This document shows, piece after piece, positions 48,948 to 57,280 of a DNA stretch of 64,000 bases. This DNA comes from Spirochaetaceae bacterium (GTDB lineage Bacteria; Spirochaetota; Spirochaetia; DSM-2461). The position numbers were made by a program, and so were the translations under genes. Where the stretch lies: NCBI GenBank assembly GCA_051531975.1, contig JAOPTT010000003.1, forward strand, positions 96,001 through 160,000, read 5' to 3'. The notes under the pieces are model-generated. The model did no database searches. It had not been told where the DNA came from and saw only the letters and a program-made list of their open reading frames with translations. Numbering within the stretch: position 1 is the stretch's first letter; each line of letters begins with the position of its first letter.

Positions 48948-51900
48948 ATGAAAGGATCAGATGATTCAGATCAAAAAGACATTATAGACCAGAAATTACA
49001 GACTCAGATTTTTGATATTATGGATGAGATGTTTCAAGTTATTGAGCTAATATATGACGATAATGGAAAAGCTATTGATTATATTCATCTTCAGGTTAAT
49101 CCCGCTTTTGAAAAGCTTGTTCAAATGAAAAAAGAGGATTTAATAGGGAAAAGAGTTAAAGATATATTTGGAATTATCGAAGATTATTGGATAGAGATTT
49201 ATGAAAGGGTTGAGTCTACAGGAGTTACAGAAAATTTTGAAAATTATGGTGCTGAACTTGATAAATATTACGCAATTAAGGCATGGAAAATAGGTGAGAA
49301 TAAAGTAGCGGTTCTGTTCACAGAAATTACAGAGAAATATAAAATGGAATATGCATTAAAAGAGAGTGAAGAACGAATTAGGTTATTTACTCAAAACGTC
49401 CCAGATTATTTGTTACAAATCGATAGAATGGGGAAAATTGAATATATTAATAAAACGTTTGAAGGTTTAACACAAAAAGATGTTATAGGAACTTCAGTAT
49501 ATTCTTGGATCCCTGATGAGTCTTTGCAAAAGTTTAAAGATAAAGTAGAAAAAGTTTTTATAAATGGATGTAATGAAATTATTGAATATCCGTCAGAAGG
49601 AGCAAAAGGGGAACCTGTATGGTTTGAATCCCAAATAGGACCACTTGAAAATTCTGGTATCATAAATCATGTGATAATTGTCGCAAGGGATATAACAGAA
49701 AAGAAAAATGCAGTAGAAGCCTCTTTAAACAGTGATAAACGATTTAAAATTGTTGCAGAATCAGCAGGGAAATGGGTTTGGGAAATTAATGCAGAAGGTT
49801 TATATACTTATTCAAGTCCTTTGGTTAAGCAAATATTAGGTTATACACCAGAAGAAATAGTCGGTAAAAAACATTTCTTTGATTTCTTCCAGAAGGATGT
49901 TAAAGAGCAATTAAAAGAAGAAGCAATTAATGCTTTTAAGCAAAAGCTTATTATTAAGGATTTTGAAAGTCCTAAAGAACATAAAAATGGTGAAATAGTT
50001 ATTCTAAATACATCAGGCAGTCCTATTCTTGATAAAGATGGTAATTTAATAGGATATCTCGGTGCTGATAGTGATATTACTGAGCGTAAAATTGCAGAAA
50101 ATGAAATTAGATATCAGGCATCTTTAATTGAGCAAATGGATACAGCTATAATAACAATAGGCTTTGATAATAAAATACTTTCCTGGAATGAACATGCCAA
50201 AAGTCTTTATGGGTGGAGTAAGGAAGAAGTTATAGGAAAAGATATTATTGAACTATTAGGCGCTGAAGAATCGAAAGAGGAAACCTTAAAATCATTTGTT
50301 GATCTGAATAGAGATGGGCATTGGGAAGGAGATTATTTAGCTAATAAAAAAGATGGTACTCGAGTTCCAATCCATGTTATAAATTCATATTTAAAAGATT
50401 CAAATGGAGAAAATATTGGATTTATAGGACTGAGTACTGATATTACATATCGTATTAAGGCAGAGATTAAATTAAATCAAAGTACTCAATTACTTGAAAC
50501 ATCTCAAGCAATAGCAAAGCTTGGTGGATGGGAACTGGATATTGTGACAAATAACTTATTCTGGACTGCAGAGACCTATCGTATTTACGATACTTCTACA
50601 GAAGAGTTCAACCCAACAGTGGATGCAGGTTTTGGCTATTTCTTACCTGAGTCTCGTCGTATTATTTCTGATGCATTGAAGGCAGCAGTAGAGAATGCAA
50701 AAGGTTACGACCTTATACTAGAAACCCTGACTACAAAAGGCCGACGAATTGACATACGTACTACATGCGAAGTAATACTACTCGATGGAAAACCCATAAG
50801 GTTAACTGGGATTTTTCAGGATATAACTGAACTTAAGCAAGTAGAAAACAAAATACTTGCTGCTGAAGAAACGGCAAGATTAAATGAACAATATTACAAA
50901 AATATCATCAACAAAATGGGAGACCCAGTTTTTGTAAAAGACAACCAAAGCAGGTTATTACTGGTTAATGATGCTTTTTGTAAAATATTTGATCTCCCAA
51001 GGGATTCAATAATAGGAAAAACACTTGCCGAAGATGTTCCACCAAATGAACGGGAGCATTTTTTGAGAGTCGATAAACAGGTGATACAAGATGGAAAAGA
51101 TAATATTAGTGAGGAGTCGCTTACTGTAAGAAACGGTAAAACTCGTACAATTTCCACAAGAAAGTCGCGTTTTACTGATAATAGTGGTAAAAACTTTTTA
51201 GTAGGAGTTATTCGCGATATCACTGAGATACAAAAATCAGAAGAAGCACTAAGAGAAAGTGAAGAGAATCTTTCAACTATACTCAATTACATTGGGGAAG
51301 CAGTAATTGCAACAGATGGTGAAGGGAAAATTACTCAAATGAACCCTGTTGCACAAAAGTTAACCGGATGGGCACTTAAAGATGCAAAAACAACTTTACT
51401 ACCAAATGTTTTAAAAATCACGAATGCAATCTCGGGAGAAACGATTCCAAATCCCGTAGAAGGGATGATCACCAGCGGGACCATTTATAAACTAACAAAC
51501 AATACCATTCTCACCTCCCGAGATGGTGTAAAGAGACAAATTGCTGCTAGGGGTGCACCTATTAAAAACTCAACAGGTGAAATTGTTGGTGTGGTCCTGG
51601 TATTTCGGGATGTAACAGAACAATACAAACTGGAGGAGCAGTTCAGACAATCTCAAAAAATGGATGCAATCGGTCAACTTGCCGGTGGTGTTGCCCACGA
51701 TTTTAACAATATGTTAACAGGTATAATGGGATGTGCAGAGATAATTTCCAGCAAAGTCGCCGAGGATGAAGCATTAAGCCAGTTATCTAATTTGATTTTG
51801 GATACATCGATGCAGGCTGCAGAACTAACCAAGAAATTATTATCATTTTCCCATAAAGCAAAATCAGTTAACGAGATATTTGATATTCATGAATCTATTA

Positions 51901-52769
51901 CAAAAACCTTATCTATGCTGAAAAGAAGTATAAACAGATCAATTATTATTAAATCTAATTTAGATGCCCCCAATTCATATATTAATGGGGATCAATCTTT
52001 AATACAAAATTCACTTTTGAATTTAGGTTTAAATGCAAGGGATGTTATGCCTAAAGGGGGCACATTAACATTTACAACTAGGAATGTGATTTTTGAACAG
52101 AAAGACATAAATTCTAACTCAGATATTGCCCCTGGTAATTATATAGAAATAGAGGTGGAGGATACAGGTTGTGGAATGACACAGGAAGTACAAAGCCGCC
52201 TTTTTGAACCGTTTTTCACAACAAAACCAATGGGGAAAGGAACCGGCTTAGGACTCTCTACTGTCTACAATACAATTAAGGGGAATGATGGCAATATCTC
52301 TATAAGTAGTGAAATAAATCGTGGCTCTATCTTTAAAATTTTATTACCAATAATTTTGGATATAAATGAAAGCAAAGATATTGTGGCAAAAAAAACTGTA
52401 CCTGGGATTGGCACTATTTTAGTCGTCGACGATGAAAATATTGTACGATTGGTCCTTGGTCAAATGTTAAGTGAACTAGGATACAATGTCCTGTTTGCAG
52501 AAGAAGGTGAAGAGTGTATTAAAATCTATAAAGAAAAAGGAAATTCTATTGATATGATTATTTTAGATATGGTTATGCCAAAGATGAATGGCCGAGATGT
52601 CTTTTACGCATTAAAAGAAATCAATCCTGATATAAAAGTCTTAATTTGCTCTGGGTTTTCTAAGGATATAAATATCGAAAAATTAATTGAGGATGGGGTG
52701 TCAGCTTTTATGCAGAAACCATATAAAAAAATTGATATATCAATGAAAATCAAAGAGATCTTATCTTAG
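48948..52769 (+). CDS. Cytoplasmic multi-PAS hybrid sensor histidine kinase / response regulator
   Basis: About seven PAS/PAC repeats ending in DIT/DVT, QKMDAIGQLAGGVAHDFNNML H-box, FEPFFTTK, C-terminal receiver. Confidence 0.93.
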   Translation: MKGSDDSDQKDIIDQKLQTQIFDIMDEMFQVIELIYDDNGKAIDYIHLQVNPAFEKLVQMKKEDLIGKRVKDIFGIIEDYWIEIYERVESTGVTENFENYGAELDKYYAIKAWKIGENKVAVLFTEITEKYKMEYALKESEERIRLFTQNVPDYLLQIDRMGKIEYINKTFEGLTQKDVIGTSVYSWIPDESLQKFKDKVEKVFINGCNEIIEYPSEGAKGEPVWFESQIGPLENSGIINHVIIVARDITEKKNAVEASLNSDKRFKIVAESAGKWVWEINAEGLYTYSSPLVKQILGYTPEEIVGKKHFFDFFQKDVKEQLKEEAINAFKQKLIIKDFESPKEHKNGEIVILNTSGSPILDKDGNLIGYLGADSDITERKIAENEIRYQASLIEQMDTAIITIGFDNKILSWNEHAKSLYGWSKEEVIGKDIIELLGAEESKEETLKSFVDLNRDGHWEGDYLANKKDGTRVPIHVINSYLKDSNGENIGFIGLSTDITYRIKAEIKLNQSTQLLETSQAIAKLGGWELDIVTNNLFWTAETYRIYDTSTEEFNPTVDAGFGYFLPESRRIISDALKAAVENAKGYDLILETLTTKGRRIDIRTTCEVILLDGKPIRLTGIFQDITELKQVENKILAAEETARLNEQYYKNIINKMGDPVFVKDNQSRLLLVNDAFCKIFDLPRDSIIGKTLAEDVPPNEREHFLRVDKQVIQDGKDNISEESLTVRNGKTRTISTRKSRFTDNSGKNFLVGVIRDITEIQKSEEALRESEENLSTILNYIGEAVIATDGEGKITQMNPVAQKLTGWALKDAKTTLLPNVLKITNAISGETIPNPVEGMITSGTIYKLTNNTILTSRDGVKRQIAARGAPIKNSTGEIVGVVLVFRDVTEQYKLEEQFRQSQKMDAIGQLAGGVAHDFNNMLTGIMGCAEIISSKVAEDEALSQLSNLILDTSMQAAELTKKLLSFSHKAKSVNEIFDIHESITKTLSMLKRSINRSIIIKSNLDAPNSYINGDQSLIQNSLLNLGLNARDVMPKGGTLTFTTRNVIFEQKDINSNSDIAPGNYIEIEVEDTGCGMTQEVQSRLFEPFFTTKPMGKGTGLGLSTVYNTIKGNDGNISISSEINRGSIFKILLPIILDINESKDIVAKKTVPGIGTILVVDDENIVRLVLGQMLSELGYNVLFAEEGEECIKIYKEKGNSIDMIILDMVMPKMNGRDVFYALKEINPDIKVLICSGFSKDINIEKLIEDGVSAFMQKPYKKIDISMKIKEILS

Positions 52770-53853: not shown

Positions 53854-54222
53854 TTATTGGTTAATAATTTTATTAATCTTACCTGTTAATACATCCAAAT
53901 CAAATATTGGTTTAAGTATAATGTTATTATTTGTTAAACCTAAAGAAGTCAATGTTTGCGGAATAGAATAATTATAATCTCCAGTGTGTATTAGAAATTT
54001 CATTTCTGGTTTAATCTTATTAATTTCTATTATTAGTTTATCACCTTCCATATCTGGAATATGAAGATCAACAATAACAAGGTCGATATCACTTTTTGTA
54101 GATATGGATAAACCTTCTGATGCAGTTGAGGAACAGTATATTTTAAAACCTTCATCTTCCAATAACATTTCTAATGATATACGAATGGATTCATCATCAT
54201 CAATTATTAAAATATGTTTCAT
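53854..54222 (-). CDS. Single-domain response regulator
   Basis: ILIIDDD, VIVDLHIPDMEG, HTG, LKP. Confidence 0.88.
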   Translation of the reverse strand: MKHILIIDDDESIRISLEMLLEDEGFKIYCSSTASEGLSISTKSDIDLVIVDLHIPDMEGDKLIIEINKIKPEMKFLIHTGDYNYSIPQTLTSLGLTNNNIILKPIFDLDVLTGKINKIINQ

Positions 54223-54323: not shown

Positions 54324-56264
54324 TTAAAACTGAGATTTATGTTTTATAAAAAAATCTACTCTAGGCTCAAGCCATTTAAGTTTATGGTCACTAGGGTTTT
54401 CTGTAAAATAGTAGATATCTTTAAATAGATAATCCCAATTAAAGAAGTCATCGTTAACATTTAGATAATCCTTAACCAGCTCTGTTCCTGTAGGGGCAAC
54501 AGGATGTAAAAGAAATATAGCGGTTCTTAACATATGGAAAATATCTATAAGTACCAATTTTATATCATCTTCATTTATATCTTTTACCATTCTTTTAGCC
54601 CACTCTTTACTTATGCCTCTAATATATTTTTCTATATTAAACATAGCTTTATGGAATTCGTTATTATAAACCCTTCTTTCCCACTCTAATATTATTCTTT
54701 TTGAACCCTCTAAAACTTCACTTGATATTTCCCCATATGGTAAAACTCCATCAAAGTATTTTTGAGTTGTGTAAAAACAGGAACGACAGATTCTATTTAA
54801 AACATTACTTAATAGATTACCCTCTTTTAAAACCGGATCTGCATCTTTCTCTTTTGCTTCTTTATTAAAAGGCTTAGGGTTAAAATTTATTGGTCGCATA
54901 CCAAGACCTAGGGCAAAAAAATGAGCTCGCAACTGGTCTGGGGTATAATGCTCTAATAAGTCCAGAGCCATTATTGGTTTTATCTCGCCAGAAGATGAAG
55001 CTTTTCGATTACCTTGAAGAAGATGACAATTGGCTATTAATTTTGGAAATTGTAACTTTCGACCTTCTAAGCCCATAAATAAAGACATCTCAGCAAGACT
55101 ATAAAAAAAGATATTATCCTCTCCCATAAACTGATAAACAGTAGAATCTTCTGAAGACCACCAATCCTCAACCTTATTTGAACTAAGACTATGAGACTCT
55201 AGATAACATTTTGTAAATGAAATTGGTGCCCATAAAGATTCAGGCCAAACCCAAAATGTTAAATCCTTTAATCCATCAATCTCTGGGACATTTATACTCC
55301 ACTCTATATTTCCTGTTATTCTAAATGGAGTAAGGGTTTTTCCTGCTCTAAAACGTAACCCCTCCCTGTTTAATATTTCTACTGCTAACTCTCTTTGTTC
55401 TAGTGATGTGAAAATTAAAGATATTGATTTTTTATCTTCCTTTGTTTCATGGCCTGGAAGTTTACCTTTAATTAGTTCTAGTGCTTCTTTACTTTCGTTT
55501 TTAATATAAACAACAGGAGGTTCTAAGAACTCTTTAATTGTAGAAATTACATGTCGCCTACTATCAGATCTATTTTCTATTTTATTAACCCACTGGATTA
55601 ATTCGTTTTTAAAGTTATTAGGATCAATATACCAGTTAGTAACCTCCTTCATTTCTGGAGGTTCCCCAGATAATATACTTGTTGGATTAATTAAATCTTT
55701 TGGATCATAGGGGTGCCCCATTTCACACTCATCAGCATATGCCTTTTCTGACTTACAACCTGGCACAGGACACATCCCTATAACCTGTCGCCCATTTAAA
55801 AATGAGTTTAATTTTTTGTCAAAGAATTGAGCAGCTGAACGTTTATGTAGGTGCCCATTTTGATATAACTCAGTTAAAACATCAGAGCTTAATTGTTTAT
55901 GTATCTCCCCAGGTCTTCCAAAAGCTGAAGTATAATAGGATTCTGTAGAAATGTTAAAAGCTTCTAAAGCTACTTTCTGATTATTATGATTAAACAAAAT
56001 AAACTCTTCTAATGAACCACTGAATTCACCGCTTTTTATCTGTTTTTTGTAATATTCAATAATTGGAGAGCCGTAACAATCTGTTCCAGAGACAAAAATT
56101 ACATTATCTTTACCTAATCTATCCTGGAGAAACCTTTTATATATGTCTGCATGTACAAAGACACCTCCAATGTGCCCTAAATGTAAACTTTTATTGCCAT
56201 ATGGCATCCCAGCTGTAACTACTGCTCTAATAGGAAATTCTGGTCTAGAATTATCTACTCTCAT
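54324..56264 (-). CDS. Divergent MetRS-like class I aminoacyl-tRNA synthetase; amino-acid specificity uncertain
   Basis: PYGNKSLHLGH (HIGH), GTDCYG, zinc knuckle, KASSS in place of KMSKS, helical anticodon-binding domain; Met-pocket motifs altered. Confidence 0.85.
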   Translation of the reverse strand: MRVDNSRPEFPIRAVVTAGMPYGNKSLHLGHIGGVFVHADIYKRFLQDRLGKDNVIFVSGTDCYGSPIIEYYKKQIKSGEFSGSLEEFILFNHNNQKVALEAFNISTESYYTSAFGRPGEIHKQLSSDVLTELYQNGHLHKRSAAQFFDKKLNSFLNGRQVIGMCPVPGCKSEKAYADECEMGHPYDPKDLINPTSILSGEPPEMKEVTNWYIDPNNFKNELIQWVNKIENRSDSRRHVISTIKEFLEPPVVYIKNESKEALELIKGKLPGHETKEDKKSISLIFTSLEQRELAVEILNREGLRFRAGKTLTPFRITGNIEWSINVPEIDGLKDLTFWVWPESLWAPISFTKCYLESHSLSSNKVEDWWSSEDSTVYQFMGEDNIFFYSLAEMSLFMGLEGRKLQFPKLIANCHLLQGNRKASSSGEIKPIMALDLLEHYTPDQLRAHFFALGLGMRPINFNPKPFNKEAKEKDADPVLKEGNLLSNVLNRICRSCFYTTQKYFDGVLPYGEISSEVLEGSKRIILEWERRVYNNEFHKAMFNIEKYIRGISKEWAKRMVKDINEDDIKLVLIDIFHMLRTAIFLLHPVAPTGTELVKDYLNVNDDFFNWDYLFKDIYYFTENPSDHKLKWLEPRVDFFIKHKSQF

Positions 56265-56282
56265 ATTATTCTCCTAATTATA

Positions 56283-56316
56283 AAATAAAAAAGCCCCACT
56301 TTAATAAGTGGGGCTT
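56283..56316 (-). terminator. Attenuator terminator upstream of the synthetase gene
   Basis: Minus strand AAGCCCCACTT-ATTA-AAGTGGGGCTT-TTTTATTTT: perfect 11-bp stem plus U-tract. Confidence 0.9.
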
Positions 56317-56333
56317 CTAAAATAAACAATGTT

Positions 56334-56405
56334 TTAAGCAGCCCCATAATAAAGTTGTTGTTGTTGAGTTTGTTGCTGTTGTTCCTGTCTACTTAAATTA
56401 TTCAT
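56334..56405 (-). CDS. Glutamine-rich attenuator leader peptide MNNLSRQEQQQQTQQQQLYYGAA
   Basis: 23-codon ORF with 9 Gln codons. Its 3' end TGGGGCT is complementary to the terminator 5' arm AGCCCCA, and a TTGACT-N17-AATACT promoter lies just upstream. Confidence 0.85.
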   Translation of the reverse strand: MNNLSRQEQQQQTQQQQLYYGAA

Positions 56406-56476
56406 TAACTGAAGTATTACATTAAAAATTTAGAAAGTCAAACATAGTAAAGGGATTGTAATTGAAAGGTTTTAAG

Positions 56477-57280
56477 CTAAATCTTCCTAACATTTACCAA
56501 TTCAAGATATTCTGAAATCCACATTTTATATGCAGGTGGAATTACTTCCTGATCGAATTTAATAATTATTGAAAGTAGGCTTTCATCTTCGTTGACTACC
56601 TCGATTCTTTCTATATGTCCTATCATCTCACCAATACCTTCAAGTCCTTTGTATTTCATGATTAACATAGCACTACTATTTCTTAATATTTTTGATGTGC
56701 ATCCAACAAGAATAACTTTAGCACTAAACATCGAAAGTTCAGTTAATATGCATCTTTTACCACAGCCAGAAACAAAAAGAAAGTTCTGATGGTTTTTACT
56801 TTTTGAGGAGCTGTAGAGGTCTTTATTTAAAATAAATCGCTCTTCTGCTCGTTTATGTAAATTTAACTGTTTTATTATATGGGAGCCTAGAATGTTTATA
56901 AAATCGTCAGGAACTCTCTTTGAAAAATCAACTAAAAAGAAATATAGGTCTTTTTTTTCTTGATTATACTCAGTTATTTCTGAAATTTTTGAATGTATAT
57001 AAAAACAGATCTCTTTATGTTCATATTTATCATTGAAAGAAAACATTATAGATATTTTCTGTTGTTTTCTTTTTATGTAATTTAACTGATCGATTGATAG
57101 ATTTATCAGAATCTTTGCACCACTTAAGGATGAAGAATATATTATGCATGAGAGCTTCATCCCACTACATTTTAGTGTTATATCAGCAGGACGTAGCCCT
57201 AATTCTTTAATAACACTCTGATTAAAAGTAATACTATGATCTTTATGATCATCATAGATCTGATTTAGTCTTCTATCCAT
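56477..57280 (-). CDS. Spirochaetal PilZ-domain c-di-GMP receptor (PlzA-like)
   Basis: SITFNQSVIKELGL..LK...CIIYSSS N-domain and a KRAEERF RxxxR motif; the second PilZ motif appears as ELSMFSA. Confidence 0.75.
   Translation of the reverse strand: MDRRLNQIYDDHKDHSITFNQSVIKELGLRPADITLKCSGMKLSCIIYSSSLSGAKILINLSIDQLNYIKRKQQKISIMFSFNDKYEHKEICFYIHSKISEITEYNQEKKDLYFFLVDFSKRVPDDFINILGSHIIKQLNLHKRAEERFILNKDLYSSSKSKNHQNFLFVSGCGKRCILTELSMFSAKVILVGCTSKILRNSSAMLIMKYKGLEGIGEMIGHIERIEVVNEDESLLSIIIKFDQEVIPPAYKMWISEYLELVNVRKI

Follow-up and report, generated by a model that had tools for sequence, protein, structure and literature searches.

A methionyl-tRNA synthetase paralogue with a rebuilt pocket and glutamine-linked control: a candidate third route to Gln-tRNA-Gln

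Gln-tRNA-Gln is made by two textbook routes, either directly by glutaminyl-tRNA synthetase (GlnRS, gene glnS), or by a non-discriminating glutamyl-tRNA synthetase (GluRS) followed by an amidotransferase. A 64,000-nucleotide stretch of DNA from a Spirochaetaceae bacterium (GenBank assembly GCA_051531975.1, contig JAOPTT010000003.1, positions 96,001 to 160,000; hereafter the window) contains a gene for a 646-aa paralogue with the fold of methionyl-tRNA synthetase (MetRS, gene metG) and an altered amino-acid pocket (54324..56264, minus strand, ATG start, stop codon at 54324-54326), which raises the question of the amino acid and the tRNA that this enzyme serves. An initial annotation had proposed an adenylating enzyme, probably not for methionine, that fitted a glutamine signal in the leader, and the results described below sustain that proposal. 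Three lines of evidence that do not depend on the pocket connect the gene with glutamine: a glutamine-rich leader open reading frame (ORF) in front of it, the glutamine specifiers of all 11 T-boxes found in front of homologues, and carrier genomes that have neither glnS nor the amidotransferase GatCAB. The protein is probably, if far from certainly, a MetRS-derived class I synthetase retargeted to tRNA-Gln, predicted to do the job of GlnRS by making Gln-tRNA-Gln directly.

The protein, its family and its altered motifs

The 646-aa protein matched PF09334 (tRNA-synt_1g) with 220.4 bits against a gathering score of 20.1, in a match split in two, and the Pfam search found no second domain. It fell below the NCBIfam equivalog cut-offs for metG (NF001100, 235.3 versus 587; TIGR00398, 184.6 versus 336.35), and none of the glnS models, TIGR00440 included, matched it at E <= 0.01. 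When its sequence was compared with solved structures, residues 12-249 aligned well to MetRS and the second half weakly. An AlphaFold2 (AF2) model built from 52 sequences scored a pLDDT of 92.6 and a pTM of 0.92, and its best structural matches were MetRS (1rqg, E 3.7e-32, TM 0.74; 1qqt; 5goy). As modelled, the MetRS fold is complete and retains the residues that bind ATP and the alpha-amino group; with the enzymes of E. coli and P. abyssi (PF09334; 1qqt, 1rqg) the protein shares the Rossmann core, the connective peptide with its knuckle, a loop at the KMSKS position and the helical anticodon domain.

The window gene is a paralogue, distinct from the cell's MetRS. The host genome (5.46 Mb in 29 contigs, 98.5% complete) carries elsewhere, on contig 2, a canonical metG of 721 aa (514 bits to PF09334) with the motifs FIGKDNIPFH and KFSKS and a C-terminal extension, so that the supposition that the paralogue might be the genome's only MetRS fails. 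A canonical glnS is also present (at C14, 699.5 bits), no gatB was found in the host genome, and a single tRNA-Gln gene (UUG) was detected. The paralogue was also considered as the only MetRS of small genomes, and this was rejected, given that a separate canonical MetRS (PF09334) was found in all 13 of the other carriers examined.

Hundreds of relatives at 53-68% identity were found in Spirochaetales, Clostridia and other Bacillota, and Oligoflexia, named in the databases only as 'class I tRNA ligase family protein' or 'methionyl-tRNA synthetase'; after clustering at 50%, only about a dozen full-length representatives of the family ranked ahead of canonical MetRS. A quick maximum-likelihood tree (IQ-TREE, 52 sequences) placed the 26 family rows together with 100% support and set them apart from canonical MetRS by a stem branch of 1.24 changes per column.

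Residue correspondences were taken from alignments to E. coli MetG (NC_000913.3) and to the host's own canonical MetRS; the roles given below for E. coli residues are those of the MetRS literature, and the window features lie on the minus strand unless stated otherwise. The pocket and loop changes described in the initial annotation were each located where it had placed them. The pocket wall, YVW---LDAPIGY in E. coli, is remodelled to WVWPESLWAPISF (residues 338-350, 55215..55253), with W253 retained as W340, a PES insertion directly after it and Y260 replaced by F350. A remodelled pocket strand reads QFMGEDNIFFY (residues 378-388, 55101..55133), with Y388 in place of H301, a position occupied by His in 22/22 canonical sequences and by Tyr in 26/26 family sequences. 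KMSKS appears as KASSS (residues 421-425, 54990..55004), in which K335 has become S424, and R233 is G318. Leu13, Tyr260 and His301 are listed around the methionine site of MetRS in one paper (PMC6158480).

The HIGH motif is kept as HLGH (residues 28-31, 56172..56183), whose invariant H28 and H31 are the E. coli H21 and H24, and GTDCYG (residues 60-65, 56070..56087) supplies D62 as the counterpart of D52, which binds the alpha-amino group; Y15 (as Y22) and D296 are retained as well. Preservation of these two motifs had been correctly noted, but the zinc knuckle, reported as kept, is altered to C165-x4-C170-x9-C180-x3-H184 (55713..55772): the three Cys are invariant, the fourth (E. coli C161) is replaced by Leu or Met, and the His that follows is nearly invariant. 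As had also been seen, an extra insert precedes PFRITGN (residues 313-319) and no Trbp111-type C-terminal domain is present, the protein ending with the helical anticodon-binding domain (residues ~477-646, 54327..54836, from the alignment and the AF2 model). In this domain N490 and R494, both conserved, correspond to N391 and R395, anticodon contacts in E. coli. The insert, which is specific to the family, adds about 63 residues (~250-312, 55329..55517) to the connective-peptide region between E. coli MetG 223 and 224 and has a beta-alpha-beta-beta-alpha-beta, ferredoxin-like order. Modelled alone (pLDDT 76) it gave a best Z of 8.0 in a structure search of 48,161 chains, with ferredoxin-like, ACT-like or RRM-like matches; these being generic, no function is assigned to it.

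Across 47 members of the family, five motifs, GMPYGNK.LH.GH, GTDCYGS, VWPESLWAP.SFT, QF.G.DN.YFY and KASSS, reached a conservation of at least 90%, indicating that the alterations are not chance drift. Y388, E342, S343 and K421 were invariant in 52 sequences, and HxGH, D62, Y22, N24, D383 and K421 were invariant or nearly so. The sulphur-reading residues, the KMSKS loop, the zinc knuckle and the connective-peptide region have thus been rebuilt, in a form conserved throughout the family. We infer the activated amino acid from other evidence, as the pocket changes alone do not name one.

A sister clade of four sequences (P0148, P0173, P0185 and P0203) has the WPESL insertion and the YFY motif (H301 to Y) in common with the family, retains KMSKS, GTDDHG and a normal four-Cys knuckle, and differs in the anticodon-helix motif (LNAA.EKP). 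Its members also score under the metG cut-offs, one of them is labelled Pseudomonadota, and the clade may represent an intermediate form.

Glutamine signals in front of the gene

Upstream of the gene in the window, a leader ORF encoding MNNLSRQEQQQQTQQQQLYYGAA and closed by a stop codon was read from the sequence (56334..56405). Seven CAA and two CAG are among its 23 codons, and with nine Gln in 12 residues it ranked first among the genome's 64,538 ATG ORFs of 10-40 codons, ahead of runners-up with seven. It is followed by an intrinsic terminator (56289..56318; one found versus 0.2 expected) with a 13-bp stem containing six G-C pairs and then UUUUUUAUUUU. The 5' arm of this terminator (AGCCCCA, 56309-56315) also serves a predicted antiterminator, whose own 5' arm, UGGGGCU (56340..56346), lies within the last leader codons; the two pair at -14.1 kcal/mol in the fold of the nascent RNA, with the 3' terminator arm not yet made. 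The fold of the leader region had a z of -3.83, none of 200 shuffles being as stable. A run of regulatory codons and an overlapping antiterminator and terminator, the marks of a ribosome-mediated attenuator, were therefore both found in silico, and as an Rfam search of the window returned no T-box or other family, the regulation there is not that of a T-box.

Ahead of the leader ORF, TTGACT-17-AATACT, with a TG preceding the -10 hexamer, resembles a promoter (56413..56441); this is a consensus match only and weak on its own, shuffled sequence being expected to yield 2.1 such sites where two were found. No Shine-Dalgarno sequence precedes the leader ATG, which lies about 8 nt past the -10 hexamer (window 56403-56413), so the leader peptide may be made from a leaderless or near-leaderless transcript. 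In front of the synthetase-like gene a Shine-Dalgarno AGGAG was read 7-11 nt upstream of the ATG (56271..56275). Two spirochaete relatives, L028 and L029, have a similar G+C-rich stretch ~100-300 nt upstream of the paralogue, with neither an Rfam match nor a leader ORF.

Judged from the predicted folds, the attenuator would work by the logic of the classic ones. With Gln-tRNA plentiful, the ribosome would reach the leader stop codon and cover UGGGGCU, and the terminator would form; with Gln-tRNA scarce, the ribosome would stall in the run of nine Gln codons and leave UGGGGCU free to pair with AGCCCCA, so that the terminator would be blocked and the gene transcribed. In the host, where GlnRS is present and gatB is not, the enzyme would be an auxiliary copy under this ribosome-mediated attenuation. 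The familiar leader-peptide attenuators (trp, his, leu, thr, pheST) likewise combine a short ORF rich in regulatory codons with an overlapping antiterminator and terminator; the window leader differs from them in its Gln codons, in a host that the names of its homologues mark as spirochaete-related, in a predicted design of only two hairpins, and in the missing Shine-Dalgarno sequence with its possibly leaderless start. Such attenuators are treated in a modelling paper (PMC1183508), and our literature search found no paper joining 'glutamine codons' with leader-peptide attenuation.

A second, unrelated type of control was detected in front of homologues. Fifty homologue loci (21 + 29) were scanned for T-boxes (Rfam RF00230, above the gathering score) lying directly upstream on the same strand, and 11 loci had one. 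With the specifier read in the register GAA, 0-1 nt, codon, purine, all 11 T-boxes gave a Gln codon, either CAA (L011, L013, L022, L023, L058 and L059) or CAG (L008, L010, L075, L076 and L077, with L075 and L076 identical in the printed alignment), and none read AUG; shifted registers gave mixed amino acids. L022 comes from a cultured carrier, Clostridium intestinale DSM 6191. Two unrelated T-boxes in the same loci served as controls and read AAG, before a class II LysRS-type gene, and ACC, on the opposite strand. The discriminator-pairing sequence was UGGC in eight of the 11, which pairs with G73, and the tRNA-Gln genes that were read have U1-A72 and G73; the discriminator of tRNA-Met is A73. 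For matching T-boxes to the tRNA-Gln of their own hosts, only two genes were recovered: in G038, G73 faces UGGU and forms a wobble pair only, and in G041 the CUG isoacceptor was found and the UUG isoacceptor required by the CAA specifier was not, within this sample of two hosts. The locus L023 belongs to a genome (G054) that is labelled a Caulobacteraceae metagenome-assembled genome (MAG) yet stands in the Clostridia sample, which may point to a misplaced contig or label; its paralogue is incomplete (570-aa frame).

Distribution of the paralogue against glnS and gatB

A sample of the class Clostridia (399 scored genomes, requested at >=90% completeness) contained 41 carriers of the paralogue. 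Among these, glnS was present in only three and gatB in 29, and 11 had neither, whereas the first 20 non-carriers listed had glnS (n = 15) or, in the remaining five, gatB, with none lacking both. A single order of the Clostridia (121 genomes, requested at >=85% completeness) showed the same pattern, with the paralogue in nine genomes, glnS in 110 and gatB in 68: six of the 11 genomes without glnS carried the paralogue, versus three of the 110 with glnS. Four genomes of this order lacked both glnS and gatB, and three of them carried the paralogue; in the fourth (G087) a gatA above the cut-off lies at the end of a truncated frame, and for this reason a GatCAB is probably hidden there in an assembly gap.

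A set of 23 carriers, drawn from the homologue loci and the window's order, for most of which completeness was not given, divided into five with glnS, eight with gatB only and 10 with neither. Five carriers without either route each had AsnRS and a single GluRS, and in these five gatA was absent or represented only by a sub-threshold amidase. glnS is thus much rarer among carriers than among non-carriers, and about a quarter of the carriers possess neither of the known routes; the direction of this contrast is clear, and its size is not to be read as a statistic.

One genome without glnS and gatB (G039) has a divergent 500-aa amidase (L011:1772-3274, minus strand; PF01425, 326 bits; gatA model, 229.7 bits, under the cut-off) adjoining the T-box and the paralogue. 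Within the window's order, the window genome (G000) has glnS and no gatB, and the other carriers G001, G014, G015 and G016 have gatB and no glnS. With the same query, the paralogue was not found in three other genomes of the window's genus (71-96% complete).

Proposed function, alternatives and gene surroundings

Direct glutaminylation is the most economical reading, because sensors of uncharged tRNA-Gln should control whatever restores charged tRNA-Gln; because no part of a class I synthetase, the anticodon domain included, is missing from the protein, and its gene stands alone, with no conserved neighbour among 42 flanking proteins (15 loci); and because in distribution it replaces glnS, and about a quarter of the carriers have no other candidate. 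Glutamine is preferred to glutamate because many carriers, the host included, have no GatCAB. Taking this further, we lean, by a narrow balance of the evidence, to a third route to Gln-tRNA-Gln, in which a class I enzyme recruited from MetRS would be the sole route in about a quarter of the carriers and an inducible back-up elsewhere, with T-box and leader peptide, unrelated sensors of uncharged tRNA-Gln, recruited to it independently. Its likeness to GlnRS (TIGR00440) would lie in the proposed job and in a distribution complementary to that of glnS, while the two differ in origin, being unrelated within class I. GlnRS itself derives from GluRS.

As an alternative, a tRNA-independent amino-acid ligase of the cupin/MetRS-like hydrazine synthetase type might make or spare a Gln-related metabolite and for that reason be under Gln control. 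The precedent is PyrN-C (9l8v), the MetRS-like domain of bacterial hydrazine synthetases, which according to its preprint (bioRxiv 10.1101/2025.08.22.671884) is a MetRS fold retargeted to Glu, with a KMSKS loop altered to KFSTG; it came up as fold match number 16, its loop is degenerate like that of the paralogue, and T-boxes also govern biosynthesis and transport genes (PMC2494555). However, the PyrN-C enzymes are described in that same preprint as having a cupin partner, standing in natural-product clusters and passing the amino acid to a hydroxylamine, whereas the paralogue stands under a T-box or a leader peptide, has neither a Pfam family named cupin nor a gene-cluster context among the 42 flanking proteins, and resembles PyrN-C only weakly (E 3.5e-9, N-terminal part only). 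The paralogue moreover keeps a full anticodon-binding domain with N490 and R494 conserved, and a ligase would leave the carriers without glnS and GatCAB unexplained, so we consider this unlikely. Charging of tRNA-Gln with Glu by a tRNA-Gln-specific, GluRS2-like enzyme, the product then being converted by GatCAB, would suit the 29 of 41 sampled carriers with gatB, and the glutamyl-adenylate reported for PyrN-C indicates that a MetRS fold can bind this intermediate. The absence of gatB from the other 12 and from the host, together with the state of gatA in the five carriers checked, makes it quite improbable, as Glu-tRNA-Gln would be mistranslated in cells without gatB.

A catalytically dead protein that binds tRNA-Gln, as a chaperone or regulator of its use, would account for the loss of the K335 and R233 equivalents and of the fourth zinc Cys, but the (near-)invariance of HxGH, D62, Y22, N24, D383 and K421 is unexpected for a dead site, and genomes that have neither route would not be served by such a protein; we therefore hold it to be very improbable. 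A second MetRS that charges tRNA-Met and has diverged, perhaps towards stress tolerance or inhibitor resistance, is suggested by the fold and closest relatives of the enzyme, by the unchanged N391 and R395 positions, and by the tRNA-Met(CAT) genes near four loci. This is, by a small margin, the least probable of the alternatives: H301 and Y260 are replaced family-wide, the T-boxes mostly pair with G73 rather than with the A73 of tRNA-Met, the regulation senses Gln and not Met, and the gene coexists with a true MetRS and anticorrelates with glnS, not with metG.

Several observations weigh against direct glutaminylation. A known route to Gln-tRNA-Gln is retained in 30 of the 41 sampled carriers, so the paralogue is in principle dispensable in them. 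Most carriers are MAGs, in which a missing gene can fall in an assembly gap, and the contrasts overstate their significance because related genomes are not independent. On the regulatory side, T-boxes are missing from 39 of the 50 loci, neither leader nor T-box precedes the gene in the three closest full-length relatives (L028-L030, 61-63% identical), and the leader ORF was seen in the window only, among the loci examined. As to the enzyme, the equivalents of K335 and R233, important for Met activation in E. coli MetRS, are changed to Ser and Gly, so that activation may differ from that of MetRS or may not occur; and since N391 and R395 are unchanged, an anticodon switch is not visible at these positions. 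Finally, in four small Clostridia genomes the paralogue is followed, ~0.9 kb downstream, by a tRNA-Met(CAT) gene (L014:6872-6948, L016:6826-6902, L019:3108-3184 and L024:6799-6875).

Each amino acid has as a rule one synthetase lineage, lysine being the famous exception. If direct glutaminylation is right, a MetRS-derived Gln enzyme would be a second exception beside it and would explain how Gln codons are translated in genomes seemingly without both routes. Thousands of genes now called 'MetRS' or 'class I tRNA ligase family' would then need a corrected annotation, and genetic-code engineering would gain a natural example of a synthetase that has switched its amino acid as well as its tRNA. 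A parallel in regulation is offered by extra synthetases of another class or type under T-box control, such as the class I LysRS gene lysK of Bacillus cereus (PMC2916919), a second, structurally different synthetase induced by its uncharged cognate tRNA, although for lysine both enzyme types were already known and the type of the paralogue is not known for glutamine. A Gln-linked MetRS paralogue was not described in the literature searched, including PMC11477304, PMC2494555 and PMC7778990; supplements, among them the TBDB tables, which could list these T-boxes, were outside that scope.

In the four loci with a tRNA-Met(CAT) gene (L014, L016, L019 and L024), the gene ahead of the paralogue encodes a sigma factor, and the paralogue lacks a T-box. 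ARAGORN found 43 tRNAs in the host genome, with tRNA-Ala and tRNA-Ile not detected and only two CAT tRNAs; those unaccounted for were probably lost with unassembled rRNA operons. None of the three neighbours of the gene in the window recurs beside homologues: they are a 1273-aa multi-sensor hybrid histidine kinase (48948-52769, plus strand), a lone 122-aa receiver-like protein (53854-54222, minus strand), and a 267-aa ORF with no family assigned (56477-57280, minus strand).

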